Positions 48,001-54,000 of a stretch of DNA of 64,000 nt are shown here, piece after piece (the first letter of the stretch is position 1; each line of letters begins with the position of its first letter). This stretch comes from a plasmid. The position numbers are program-made. The DNA lies in the sequence record CP128686.1; one strand, 5' to 3'.

Positions 48001-51000
48001 GACTTTTTCATGCAGCTCAACAGAGCGTGAGAAACAGACGGTCGGCGAGCCAGGCGTTTGATTCGGGTTCTCAGCGTCAGATTGTTTCGCTCAATGCGCT
48101 GAGTAGAGATTTTGCCGGTCAGATGCTTATCCTTCGGCACCTCTCTGGCGTAACTTCCCAGTCATCGCTGGTTATTATGCTGATATTAAACGGTGTGAGC
48201 AGAGCCAGCAGCGCACTGCAGGTTGCATCGGTCCGTGGCCCAAAAGTATAGGCCAGCACACCACCTGTTTTCGTGTTGTACGCGTACCAGAGCCAGTGCT
48301 ACCGGGCTTTGCTGCCGACCTCCATTGCTCGTGGAGTTCGCAGATGAGCGCCACATCGGCATGAGCAACCGGAGATGTGGTTACTCGTCGTGGCGCGAGT
48401 TTTTTAAAGTGCGAATAACGGTGTTAATGCCGATTTTGAGTGTCCTTGCGGTATCACAGACGCCGGCTCCGTTGAATGCCATTTCGGTAATTTTCTCTTT
48501 GACGCCGTGCTTGCGTGCTTCATAAGTATAAGTGAGCAGAAACACGCGGTAGCAATCGCGGCAGCGAAACCGGTCACGGCCTTTAGGGCTCTGCCTGTGG
48601 CGGAAAACTTGGTCAGACTGACAACGGGGGCAATGAACGGTAACGCTGGTCATGAACAAACCTCAAAAGCACGCATCATACATCAATTCAATTAATTAGA
48701 GGCATTGATCTCCTCCCTGAAAACAGTGCCGTCTCCTCGCCTCGTGAGCTCACACCAACAGAAGCACCGGCAGAAATAAGAATCCCTGGTTTCTCCTGAT
48801 ACTATTTAATAATTTCTGACAGGGCCTGACCTGCTTTCTGAATATAAACTGGTTGCGAGACCTCACCCAGCTGATTGGCAACCATCCGGGTTTCATAATG
48901 ACTGGCAGTTAATACCAGAGCTGGCCCGTGAATACAGGACAATTGTTCAACTACTGCCTTTAACCATTGACCTGAAAATATCTGTTCTTTCGGGTCATCG
49001 AACACCTTTGGAAAATCAGCACCGGCGATGGTCAGCTTCATTGAGCCATAGACGTCTGGGGAGAATATTTTCCTGATTGAAATCGTATCGCTGGTTAACC
49101 CCAGAGCTTTACATAACCACTCCATTCCGGTCTCTGGGGTACTGGTAATAGAGAGGGTAGCCGACGTCAGTAACGCACTACGCCACTGAGTGCAGTATCT
49201 GCCCACATTCATCCCGATAAACGGGTTTACAGCGATCAGGGCTGGTTCACGACGTTTATTGGAAACGCCTACGCCCTTTTGCCCCCGGACAATCCGAGCA
49301 TATCCCTGCTGTAGATACAGTCAAAGAAAGCTTTCCGGGCCGCTTCATTTTTTATTTTCCGCCCTACCTTTGATAAGGCGTTAAAGCTATTGTCAAACAA
49401 GGCAACCGCTGCAGGCGTACTACAAAAATGCAGATCGCCCGCTATCGAAGTCACGTCGTTCATTAACTGGTCGATGACATGCACGCCATTACGTGGAATA
49501 TGTTCATTGAACGCACTAGTCAACTCTCTGAGGTTGAAGCGCCGCTGTTTCCAGACCTCAAGCATATCTACAAAAATGTCTGCCTCATCAATAATGAGGT
49601 ACATATTTTCTTTGTCACCGAGGATGCGGTGATTACACATACAGTCGACCATTACCATCGCATGGGTCGTAACAATAAAGTTAGCACTGAGAGCATTCAG
49701 GCGAATATCATCAATGTCCTGTATATCATCCCAGATGGAGTAGGTGACCATCTCTGGCGTGATCTGCGCTGGCAGTTCACCATACTCTTCTTCAAACTCA
49801 ACCAGAGGTTTTGACCAGTTAGCGAGTTTTTCAAGGACCTTAACCGTATCCAGATCGGTAAATTCGTCCATGAGTAACAGTCCACGTACTTTCTCCAGGG
49901 ATACGTAATTTACTTTCCCCATAAGCCGGGAAAAAGTAACTTTTATGCCGCATTGTTCAGCTATCTGTTCAAGGAGAGGACGATCGCTTCTGAATATCTG
50001 GTGCATCAGTGCATGAGAATTCGTGGCAATCACAAATTTTGCCTCAGGGTTTTTCAGCAGAATCAGAAGCGCCGGTACCAGATAGCCCAGCGTTTTTCCT
50101 ACACCTGTTTCAGCACTAATCAGTGCAACTTTATGATCCTGAGTCAGTGCACCAGCTGCAGCCTCGATATAATCCTGTTGGACCTTACGTAACGACAATC
50201 CGGCAGACTCAAATACCGCTGATGTATTCATGACTACTGCCCCGCCAGATGCATGAAACCGCAACCAAATACGCGTTTAGGGCCTACGCCATAAACGATT
50301 CCCACTTCAGCTTCCTGTTGATTGCTGATTATGGCGGTACCCTGTACCGTGAATACGGGTAGCGTAAAACCACGTCCAGCATTTCCTTTGTCGATATGGA
50401 CGAATTTCGGGCCACTGACGACGATTTGACCGGGTTTAAACCCAGCCTTCGCTAATTTGGTGAGGGCCAACTGATAACTAGCCTCTTCAGATGGAGCAAA
50501 CTGGCGTCGGCCACGGCCTTCTGACTTTGTTCCTTTATGAAAGATGGCCATTAACGTAATGAACTTGATTTCATGGCCCTCAGAGAGAATAAGCTCTCTT
50601 TTTTTCTCCCCAGGCAACTCCAGAGCTGTAGCTGTGCGGACCAGGAGTAACGAATCATCCCCGGTACCGGGAAAAATTTTAAAAGAGTACGGCAGCTTCT
50701 CTCCCTTACGTTCCTGCATGAAAAAATCCAGGTGCTGGTGGATCTGGTAAACACTTGTGTGACGGATACGCAACCGAAACGCATTATCGTAGTAAATCAT
50801 GGTTATACCTTTTTCAAGAGGTGCAAAATGCTCAGGCGTTGATGGGGATCAGTCGGCAGAAGCAGCAGTAACGGAATGAGGTTGTTTTTCTTAAACTCAT
50901 TCGAGGCAGCTTCAGGAGTTATCCGCGAATAGGCCAGCAGGGTTACTGTTCTGATAAAGATGTCTATCTCTTTCTTGAAGTAGTTTTTTATTTCCTGATG

Positions 51001-54000
51001 GAGTTCTTTAGCCTTTTTTAAATCCAGCATGTAAAGGACTTCGTTCTGCCGGGTCAGTAGTTGATCGGCACAGGTATAAATTGCGTCGGCACTCAGACTG
51101 ACCCGCAGTGAGCGAACAAGCTCGTAGGTTTTCACGCCGAAGTTTTGAATATAAATCAGCGGGAATTTCAGTTCGGTGTTAAACAGGTATTCCAGGTGCT
51201 GACCGCTGGTGGCCGTGATGACTTCTACGTGATCGAAAAAATGCTCAGGTAGTTTATTGACCACTCCCTGAGGGGCTAAAAGAACAGAAGAATTGTCTTC
51301 AACGTTAATAACAGCCCCAACACCAGACCACATGCCAAATTTCTGGCCGGTTGTTGGTTTTTTGGGGTTCTCCACGCCCATCAGTTCTGGAGCAGAAACA
51401 AAAAATGTCTGGCAAGGACGGCAATGCACAACACGTTCCCTGTAGGCGTTGACCAGCTCGAAGCCTACCCCGTCGAACTCTGAGGGCGCTCTGCCGCAGC
51501 ATGAGCAATTTCGTTGCACAGGCACAGGCTCACTCATATAGGGCAATAAAATACTCGTCAGAGCGCTATATACTGACTCTACAGGATGATTCAAAGCTCC
51601 CCCTCCCCTAAAATAAGCTATGCCATTTTGATGGCAAATTAGTTAAGTGTCCCTGCTCACAGATACAAGGAATTTTCACCCGCCAGCTTAATAAATAATG
51701 GTGAAATTTCCTTAGGCAAATTTAACAGAAGCTTCTGATACAAAGACTCATCTTCCGGACGCCCGGTCAAAATCACTTTCCTTCCCGAGGCAAGTGATTG
51801 AAGAACGTATTTCAACATATTTCGCACATCAAAAAGAACGACATCATCAATGATGATATCTTTATTTGATAAACTCTGAATAAATTCCTCGTTTGCAATC
51901 GGCTCATCTGGTGAAATAAATAAACCATCAATTAATGCACGCTTCGCCAGAAGGGTTTTCCCTGACCCAGAAGGCCCTATTATAACGACAATAAGGTTAG
52001 TATCTTTTTCTGAAAAGAAACTCAACACCTTATTGAGACATTTTTCATTTTGATTGTTATTGAATTTCAAATCATGACTCCTTTCCAAGAAGATGCCCTC
52101 ACCTGTGGTTATTCCGTTAATTCAAGGGATGAAGTGTACCAGTTAACCTATGTCCTAATGCAAGACGGTTTTTGTTTCCGAATTACCCTTGTCGTTGCCA
52201 TCACCAGACATCTCTTGCAGGTCTTGATGGCCCATCAGATTCACAAACATAGCACGGTAACCTACTGGCAAGCGTGAAAGTAAATCAATGCACAATTCAT
52301 GGTCTGACGGTTGTCCGATGACCAGAACCTTATGGCCAGAAGCATGCACAGCCAGAATACACTCCAGGACTTTGTCTGCATCAAAACGGAAAATGTCATC
52401 AATCACTACATCAAAACGGCTTTGTTGAATAAATAAGATTTCGTGCGAACGACCCTGTAGCTGGCTGGATTTTCAGGCAATACGCACGCTTTCTGGCATC
52501 CCAGCCTTTGTCATCCTGTTCAACGCACGCACCATGGCCATAGCTTCCGCTACCTGACCATCGTAGTCACGCAGCGTCAGTGAATCTCCCAACAACTGCT
52601 TCATTCTGTACATTGCCGTTTCCGCTATCGAGCGACGGTTATATTCCGTTGTCCATTTCCACCGTGCATTGCTTCCGCTCAGCCGCTGATTAGCAACGGC
52701 ACGGTTGCGGTCTGCGTACTCACCGGGCCAGTAACCTGCTCCTTTTCGGGGAGGAATAAGCGCGCTGATTTTTTTGCGGCGCATTTCATCGTGACAAAGC
52801 CGTGTATCGTAAGCCCCGTCTGCCGCGGCTGCCCTGATTTTTCTGTGAGTCTGCCGGATAAGGCCCGGGAAGGCTTCTGAGTCCGTGACGTTATTCAGCG
52901 ACAGGTCTGCACAGACAACTTCATGTGTGTTGCTGTCAACAGCAAGATGCAACTTTCGCCAGATACGACGGCGCTCTTTGCCGTGCTTTCTGACTTTCCA
53001 TTCGCCTTCACCAAAGACCTTCAGCCCGGTGGAATCAATCACCAGGTGTGCGATTTCACCCCGGGTGGACGTTTTGAAACTGACATTAACCGACTTTGCC
53101 CGCTTACTGACACTGGTGTAATCCGGGCAGCGCAACGGAACGTTCATCAGGGCAAAAATGGAATCAATAAAACCCTGCGCAGCCCGCAGGGTCAGCCGGA
53201 ATACGCGTTTAATCACCAGAACGGTGGTGATGGCGAGATCAGAATAGCGCTGGGGCCTTCCTCGTGATGAAGGCGTTGCCGACTCATACCAGGCCTGAAT
53301 CGCCTCATCATCCAGCCAGAAAGTGAGGGAGCCACGGTTGATGAGAGCTTTGTTGTAAGTGGACCAGTTGGTGATTCTGAACTTTTGCTTTGCCACGGAA
53401 TGGTCTGAGTTGTCGGGAGGATGCGTGATCTGATCCTTCAACTCAGCAAAAGTTCGATTTATTCAACAAAGCCCTTTGACATGCACAATTATTGTCTGCC
53501 CAATAGTCCGATAGTTAGCCTGTTTACAAAAACTGTTGCTGGTCATACTGGTGCTTTATTCCCGGTTAAGCGGGCTAGTTAACCCAGAGTGATGAACCAT
53601 CCTGGAGTGGCAGATAAAGCAGAAAGAATGGATTTGTTGCCCTGATTTTTTCCGAATCTAAATAAAGATTAGCTTAATCACTCGTTGTTATGTTATAACA
53701 TTAAATTAGCAATATTCTCAGCCAGCAGCACGGCCTGTGGGGGGCGGTTATTGAGAACGAATTCGGTGAAATCTGTATAGATGATGCATTGGTTATCAAT
53801 GCAGATGAAGAAGTCTTCGAGATGAATAATGGCTGCATCTGCTGCACGGTGCGAGGAGATTTGATTCATATCCTGAGTCGTCTGATGTACCGCCGCGATA
53901 AATTTGACCGTATTCTGATCGAATACCACCGGGATGGCCAATCTACTGAGTGAAGCAAATGAAGAGAGAGCCGCTAACGATCCTGAATGGTTTTCTTAGT

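Follow-up and report, generated by a model that had tools for sequence, protein, structure and literature searches.

A type IV-A3 CRISPR-Cas remnant beside the virulence block of a pLVPK-like plasmid of Klebsiella pneumoniae

Three consecutive genes on the minus strand of a plasmid (sequence record CP128686.1) resemble parts of a type IV CRISPR-Cas effector, and no CRISPR array accompanies them in the stretch of 64,000 nucleotides that was analyzed (hereafter, the window). This raises the question of whether the locus is a type IV-A system in decay or a minimal variant not yet described, both of which had been put forward in the original prediction made from the sequence. The data reported here leave us with very little doubt that the region is a non-functional, decaying type IV-A3 remnant on a pLVPK-like plasmid, inherited from an IncFIB/IncHI1B ancestor. 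As judged from near-identical public plasmids, the window belongs to a pLVPK-like (KpVP-1-type) hypervirulence plasmid of Klebsiella pneumoniae; the region is 100% identical to that of many non-mobilizable K. pneumoniae plasmids harboring rmpA/D/C, peg-344, iroBCDN, and iuc and typed as IncFIB and IncHI1B, i.e., as the replicons on which type IV-A3 systems are found.

The three genes and the motifs quoted for them were all found in the positions originally assigned to them, and hidden Markov model searches revealed that each of the three matches a PADLOC profile for type IV-A3 or IV-A. The first gene, csf1 (50803-51594, minus strand), is intact and codes for a Cas8-like large subunit of 263 amino acids (aa), with a zinc finger at its N-terminus (the cysteine cluster CSCC...CRPC). 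The supposed likeness of this protein to Csf1 was fully borne out, since it matches the PADLOC profiles Csf1gr8 (E 8e-150) and, over the full length, Csf1_2_IVA3 (E 1e-121), and shares 260 out of 263 residues (99%) with chain G of PDB 8rc2, the entry for K. pneumoniae's effector complex of type IV-A3. Searching Pfam and NCBIfam did not retrieve any match, and the protein was identified only through the PADLOC CRISPR profiles and the sequence search of the PDB.

The second gene, cas6 (Csf5; 50234-50800, minus strand), is also intact and codes for a Cas6e-like CRISPR RNA (crRNA) endoribonuclease of 188 aa, with the glycine-rich loop GVGPKRVFGCG at its C-terminus. It had been described as a repeat-associated mysterious protein similar to Cas6 or Cas5; the first of these two identities stands, because residues 1-187 match the PADLOC profile Cas6_0_IVA3 with an E of 4.6e-82; the identity with Cas5 was rejected. 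In addition, the Pfam family PF08798 (Cas6e/Cse3) matches the protein at 33.3 bits (cut-off 25). The assignment comes from these profiles; a single-sequence AlphaFold2 model, with a mean predicted local distance difference test score (pLDDT) of 36, gave no confirmation of the fold, and the sequence search of the PDB retrieved no match to Cas6. The authors of the IV-A3 cryo-electron microscopy maps could not build Cas6 into them (PMC11519345).

The third gene, dinG (csf4), is a pseudogene that retains codons 1-499 out of 624 in two reading frames (48736-50231, minus strand), as resulted from tblastn, PADLOC, and the comparison with PDB 8s35. It appears as two open reading frames (ORFs), spanning 50264-49269 and 49212-48802, which together contain the helicase motifs AETGVGKT, DEAD, and TSATLS; according to the comparison with intact loci, the real start is the ATG at 50231, and not the TTG at 50264. 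Probing by tblastn with an intact DinG aligned residues 1-320 with 50231-49272 and residues 317-499 with 49284-48736. The first ORF matches positions 6-339 of the 666 of the PADLOC profile Csf4_0_IVA (E 1.9e-123) and the second one positions 361-510 (E 1.6e-49), and by Pfam and NCBIfam the helicase falls among the DinG-like DEAD-box proteins. Moreover, the N-terminal 320 residues match chain M of PDB 8s35, the 624-aa DinG of type IV-A3, with an E of 8e-209.

The absence of a Cas7-like gene and of an array, which had already been noticed, was confirmed in the window by searches of different kinds. The best tblastn match of Csf2 (Cas7) from the intact locus L002 had an E of 1.4; that of Csf3 (Cas5) had an E of 0.006 at 25% identity, fell within a phosphoadenosine phosphosulfate (PAPS)-reductase gene, and was judged to be due to chance. 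The 29-nucleotide (nt) IV-A3 repeat GTATTCCCCCCGTGTGCGGGGGTTATCGG, whose spacers are about 32 nt long, does not occur in the window at up to three mismatches; Rfam gave no match at its gathering thresholds, Tandem Repeats Finder retrieved nothing resembling a CRISPR, and none of the 81 spacers from five intact arrays matched the window over 20 nt or more. We also checked the sister plasmid pPUTH1 (complete, 237 kb), which was taken to represent the remainder of the replicon, no exact full-length sister being at hand. The core motif of the repeat was absent from the whole of this plasmid, and the positive controls gave 9-14 exact matches per intact locus.

The comparison with the type IV-A3 loci of IncHI1B/IncFIB Klebsiella plasmids, which the original prediction had proposed, disclosed related and full loci that carry the missing genes. 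In PLSDB, the plasmid database used (72,556 records), the three genes were matched with 95-99% identity at the DNA level by about 400 other plasmids, most of them conjugative and of the IncFIB/IncHI1B type. Four intact loci were fetched, namely L002 and L009 (K. pneumoniae), L003 (K. africana), and L008 (K. quasipneumoniae), and in all of them the order, in the direction of the minus strand of the window, is csf1 (263 aa)-cas6 (188)-dinG (624)-csf3/cas5 (235)-csf2/cas7 (343)-leader-array. Intact arrays comprise 13-27 repeats with a spacing of about 61 bp, of which 29 nt are repeat and about 32 nt spacer, and GTATTCCCCCCGTGTGCGGGGGTTATCGG is the repeat employed in experiments on the IV-A3 system of K. 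pneumoniae (bioRxiv 10.1101/2023.06.23.546257). Beyond the array lie umuD in L002 and L003 (followed by umuC in L003) and mobile-element genes in L008 and L009. The window shares with these loci 97-99% nucleotide identity over csf1-cas6-dinG and the same upstream genes, and both breakpoints at which the likeness is interrupted could be mapped.

The left breakpoint (27117/27118) lies inside umuC; the right one (48735/48736) interrupts dinG, at a distance of 22 nt from an IS1 remnant. Between them there is a replacement segment of 21.6 kb (27118-48735), which occupies the exact site of the ancestral 5' part of umuC, umuD, the CRISPR array, csf2, csf3, and the 3' part of dinG, for a loss of about 4.8 kb of ancestral DNA. 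To the left of the segment, the homology with the intact backbone resumes at the 3' end of umuC, of which a terminal remnant of about 505 nt is left (26613-27117, minus strand, the start being approximate; alignment to L003, where umuC spans 1640-2911), and continues with a RES-Xre toxin-antitoxin pair. The missing parts are thus supplied by the intact loci in the places where they would be expected, and this, together with the profile matches of all three genes, sustains the original idea of a decaying IV-A locus.

These comparisons show the following history. The ancestral order was (RES-Xre)-umuCD-CRISPR array-csf2-csf3-dinG-cas6-csf1-(small P-loop genes). Through a replacement, umuC lost its 5' part and dinG its last 125 codons, while umuD, the array, csf2, and csf3 disappeared altogether, and the 21.6-kb virulence block was left in their place; then, or also, dinG gained a G6 to G5 frameshift and a CAG to TAG nonsense codon. 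On the other side, IS903 has since made nested deletions, differing in length from one plasmid to another.

The lesions of dinG are three in number, and only the first of them had been recognized. The -1 slip in a G5 run of the helicase gene is indeed there (49282-49286, minus strand, codon 316), the alignments to the intact loci having G6 at this homopolymer. The position taken for the end of the gene, 48802, turned out to be a nonsense stop instead of the natural end: the codon 477 is a premature TAG (Q477*; 48802-48804, minus strand), which reads CAG in three intact genes and CAA in L003. The homology goes on to 48736, where it stops abruptly at codon 499 out of 624, codons 500-624 being gone; a filler of 22 nt (48714-48735, minus strand), recognized by reading the sequence and by alignment, separates this point from the terminal repeat of the IS1-family element. 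All three lesions recur in the independently assembled plasmids pPUTH1, pKp_SA12_1, pM212-2, and p926_vir, and are absent from the four intact loci; pLVPK keeps the nonsense codon and the dinG-IS1 junction. Probing PLSDB with a 120-nt query across this junction retrieved it in full from 400 records, including pLVPK (NC_005249). Since they recur in independent sister assemblies and are absent from the intact loci, the lesions are real and ancestral to the plasmid lineage, and not sequencing errors.

The IV-A3 complex contains Cas5, Cas8, Cas7, and Cas6 in the ratio 1:1:6:1, plus the crRNA (PMC11519345), and repression inside transcribed regions requires DinG (bioRxiv 10.1101/2023.06.23.546257). 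As the locus supplies neither a crRNA nor the Cas7 backbone nor Cas5, no crRNA-guided effector complex should be able to form, and the additional, triple breakage of DinG would imply that the locus has no function as a CRISPR system. Four functional features of type IV-A3 are lacking, i.e., an intact DinG, Cas7, Cas5, and the array; by descent, the locus is IV-A3.

The state of csf1 and cas6 deserves separate consideration. The intergenic DNA 5' of csf1 is near-identical to that of the intact loci, and contains a promoter-like site at 51637-51610, which is a consensus match only, such sites being at least as frequent in shuffled sequence as in the region. The integrity of the two genes and the conservation of this intergenic sequence, with its promoter-like site, make expression possible; csf1 and cas6 would be passengers without a function that are yet to be deleted. 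The nucleotide identity of cas6 to the intact L002 and L003 is 98.4-98.6%. Compared to the intact loci, the lineage-specific changes amount to one non-synonymous substitution (S206F) and no synonymous one in csf1, and to one non-synonymous (S83L) and three synonymous ones in cas6, and these (1 + 4) are too few for calculating the ratio of non-synonymous to synonymous substitution rates (dN/dS).

As a separate observation, the cas6 of the window reaches only 91% identity to that of the loci L008 (8431-8997) and L009 (8434-9000), with the differences clustering in the 3' half of the gene, while the flanking csf1 and dinG are 97-98% identical in the same comparison. This aspect of the aligned sequences suggests recombination or mosaicism within cas6.

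Some points weigh against the reading of the region as a non-functional remnant, or limit it. Both csf1 and cas6 are full-length and carry few specific changes, and purifying selection is possible given so few substitutions. The expression of the two genes is a prediction, for which the promoter-like site offers no more than a consensus match, and the absence of an array elsewhere on this replicon would follow from what is seen in the sister plasmid. As to the order of events, the data fit the arrival of the virulence block in one event or in several, and any order of the dinG lesions.

The side of csf1 informs on the fate of the two intact genes. Here the region is bounded by IS903 (IS5 family; 52418-53473, minus strand; transposase at 52473-53441), which was identified by the Pfam families DDE_Tnp_1_5 and DDE_Tnp_1 and is named IS903B in public records. 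Different plasmids lack DNA stretches of different length between IS903 and the remnant, which corresponds to a set of nested, IS903-anchored deletions. The most DNA is retained in pPUTH1, with three upstream genes; the window has 863 bp fewer than pPUTH1, its endpoint (52417) falling inside the second P-loop gene; pKp_SA12_1 has lost csf1, pM212-2 csf1 and half of cas6, and in pLVPK only the last fragment of dinG is left. The IS903 deletion junction of the window was found in none of the 72,556 PLSDB records, so that its endpoint is private to the window, and sister plasmids provide at least four further ones. This pattern resembles neutral decay by IS-adjacent deletion, which argues against a selection to retain csf1 and cas6.

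It is in this light that a different explanation can be weighed, according to which the csf1-cas6 pair, perhaps with the N-terminal fragment of DinG, is kept for a role in trans, either the processing by Cas6 of the pre-crRNA of a co-resident IV-A3 or of a chromosomal I-E system, or a decoy activity weakening a competitor IV-A3. It draws support from the full length of both genes, with a single lineage-specific amino acid change each, and from the conservation of the intergenic DNA 5' of csf1 with respect to the intact loci. Furthermore, a cross-talk between IV-A3 and I-E systems has been described at the adaptation step, with similar repeats and leaders (bioRxiv 10.1101/2023.06.23.546257), and two spacers of intact arrays match pPUTH1 (28/30 and 28/31), so that the lineage may be a target. 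However, many sister plasmids, widespread all the same, have lost csf1, csf1 and part of cas6, or almost everything through deletions next to IS903. In a sample of 40 evenly spaced records out of the 823 matching plasmid records, 13 (about one-third) end at position 2055 of the query, i.e., without csf1, and only 4 (about one-tenth) have all three genes at 100% identity, a further 19 being loci of the intact lineage. Moreover, the lineage is so clonal that intact genes would be expected even without selection. We therefore consider a role in trans very improbable.

Still less can be said for a functional minimal variant of type IV, made up of Csf1, Cas6, and DinG only, without Cas7, Cas5, and an array of its own. 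All that speaks for it is an inspection by eye of which genes are present. Against it stand a dinG that is frameshifted, carries a nonsense codon, and has lost the C-terminal fifth of its product, as well as the 97-99% DNA identity to complete loci, which denotes a recent deletion derivative and not a diverged lineage; in addition, the DNA was lost through a replacement whose two breakpoints are mapped, the three dinG lesions are independent of one another, and the relatives progressively lose the remaining genes too. This part of the original prediction has accordingly to be abandoned, its probability being extremely low. Finally, the idea that the dinG frameshift is a homopolymer sequencing error and the helicase really intact, which could appeal to the proneness to error of such runs in some chemistries, has next to no probability, since G5 is common to five independent pLVPK-like assemblies and G6 to all four intact loci, and dinG would in any case be inactivated by its nonsense codon and by its truncation at codon 499.

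Having preferred the decaying IV-A3 remnant over these alternatives, we can describe its surroundings. The position of the module between an IS1 remnant on one side and P-loop genes plus IS903 on the other, as originally proposed, agrees with Pfam and with public annotation, with the limit that the P-loop genes are only two and that one of them is cut by IS903. The gene content of the replacement segment, taken from the annotation of near-identical plasmids, comprises DUF2188, fecIRA, a PAPS-reductase/ParB-N pair, iroBCDN, peg-344, rmpADC, an S-adenosylmethionine (SAM) methyltransferase, an IS3 fragment, and the IS1 remnant. The latter (IS1 family; 47961-48713, minus strand) was recognized by Pfam and by reading the sequence; its InsA is intact (48381-48659) and its InsB fragmented, and it matches HTH_Tnp_IS1 (E 5.5e-30), Zn_ribbon_InsA (E 2e-17), and, as a fragment only, DDE_Tnp_IS1. 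No right end of this element was recognized by eye, and the sequence passes directly into a fragment of an IS3-family integrase core (47796-47960, minus strand; Pfam rve_3, E 2.7e-6). Within the same segment, the poly-G tract of rmpA (46143-46148, minus strand) is G6 versus G10 in pPUTH1, with ORFs at 46085-46423 and 45795-46100; RmpA is thereby frameshifted and ends after 112 out of 209 residues, losing its C-terminal half, and the rmpA gene of this plasmid is probably non-functional.

Directly 5' of csf1 there is a gene for a small P-loop nucleoside triphosphatase (NTPase) of 137 aa from its ATG (51657-52070, minus strand), with the Walker A motif GPSGSGKT and weak NB-ARC/AAA matches over the P-loop only. 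It is a backbone gene found also beside the intact loci, and is 96% identical to the L003 orthologue. The alignment placed next to it the 3' part of a second P-loop paralogue (52155-52417, minus strand; 162 aa when intact), cut by the IS903-adjacent deletion that leaves the window 863 bp short of pPUTH1. The two paralogues (137 and 162 aa; region 9854-10839 in L003) are 31-38% identical to each other and resemble known families in the Walker A region only, and small membrane-protein genes lie beyond them. That P-loop paralogues form a long tandem array 5' of csf1 was considered and rejected, because only two of the genes are P-loop ones, the others coding for small membrane proteins. The 162-aa gene is also found immediately 5' of csf1 in a diverged IV-A3 locus of K. 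grimontii (L015, 6337-6825), at 70% identity; the P-loop genes may go with the CRISPR system, or may simply belong to the backbone of the plasmid. On its other side, IS903 adjoins an iron ATP-binding cassette (ABC)-transporter operon (54141-56950), and between the two lies an ORF fragment (53693-53953) with the CobW/GTP-binding-like motif NGCICCTVRGD, which is probably another gene cut by the IS903 rearrangement.

The two spacers matching pPUTH1 do so outside the window. They are the leader-proximal spacer 1 of L008 (K. quasipneumoniae; 28/30) and spacer 11 of L015 (K. grimontii; 28/31), and their targets are a hypothetical gene and an adjacent Hha-domain gene (22168-22197 and 22251-22281 of L012, corresponding to pPUTH1 ~121967-122080). 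From these near matches, intact IV-A3 systems may be predicted to target the pLVPK-like lineage, or other plasmids with that locus.

As a CRISPR finding, the locus is of little weight, being a broken copy of the well-characterized K. pneumoniae IV-A3: the system is thoroughly known, and the sequence of the remnant is present in hundreds of public pLVPK-like plasmids under generic annotation. We found no description of the remnant in pLVPK/KpVP-1 plasmids in the literature searched, which does not prove that none exists. In near-identical plasmids, RefSeq names csf1 "hypothetical protein", cas6 "type I-E CRISPR-associated protein Cas6/Cse3/CasE", and the split dinG "DEAD/DEAH box helicase" plus "hypothetical protein"; software that tallies cas genes could wrongly assign a type I-E or type IV system to hypervirulent strains. 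The locus also bears on the history of these plasmids, in that the fec-iro-peg-344-rmpADC block sits exactly where the ancestor had the array, cas7, and cas5, and the nested IS903 deletions could be used to tell plasmid lineages apart. From an ecological point of view, the lineage no longer has an inter-plasmid interference system of its own, while some related plasmids carry spacers nearly matching it. More speculatively, and with little probability, giving up its IV-A3 interference when the iro-rmpA block took the site of the array may have made it easier for pLVPK-type plasmids to live alongside helper and resistance plasmids.

In comparison with known systems, the window Cas6 is like the type I-E Cas6e (CasE/Cse3) in passing PF08798, in its C-terminal glycine-rich loop, and in its RefSeq type I-E name; it differs in that its match to the Cas6 profile of IV-A3 is much stronger (E 5e-82 vs 1e-9), and in that it has no cse1, cse2, cas7, cas5, or cas3 neighbors and lies in an IV-A3 gene context. 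Type IV-A1 (Pseudomonas oleovorans/P. aeruginosa) is similar in principle, with Csf1, Csf2, Csf3, Cas6/Csf5, and DinG and a nuclease-free transcriptional interference, whereas in sequence it is only distantly related, the IV-A1 DinG profiles giving an E of 6e-10 or worse versus 2e-123 for Csf4_0_IVA. The K. grimontii IV-A3-like locus (L015, NZ_FZTC01000029), the only one retrieved by a Csf1 search of genome contigs, is diverged but complete, with the order csf1-cas6-dinG-csf3-csf2-array and a small P-loop gene 5' of it; unlike the window it is whole, its Csf1 is 77% identical, and its repeat is the variant GTATGTCCCCCGCTGGCGGGGGTTATCGG. The closest counterpart is the type IV-A3 of the conjugative IncHI1B/IncFIB plasmids of K. 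pneumoniae (p1530; PDB 8rc2, 8s35-8s37; Newire 2020, PMC7434947; Benz et al., bioRxiv 10.1101/2023.06.23.546257; PMC11519345). The window differs from it in being without csf2 (cas7), csf3 (cas5), and the array, in its frameshifted, nonsense-bearing, and truncated dinG, and in belonging to a non-conjugative virulence plasmid; it shares with it the order and orientation of csf1, cas6, and dinG, 99% amino acid identity in Csf1, 97-99% DNA identity, the same upstream backbone genes, and the IncFIB/IncHI1B replicon.

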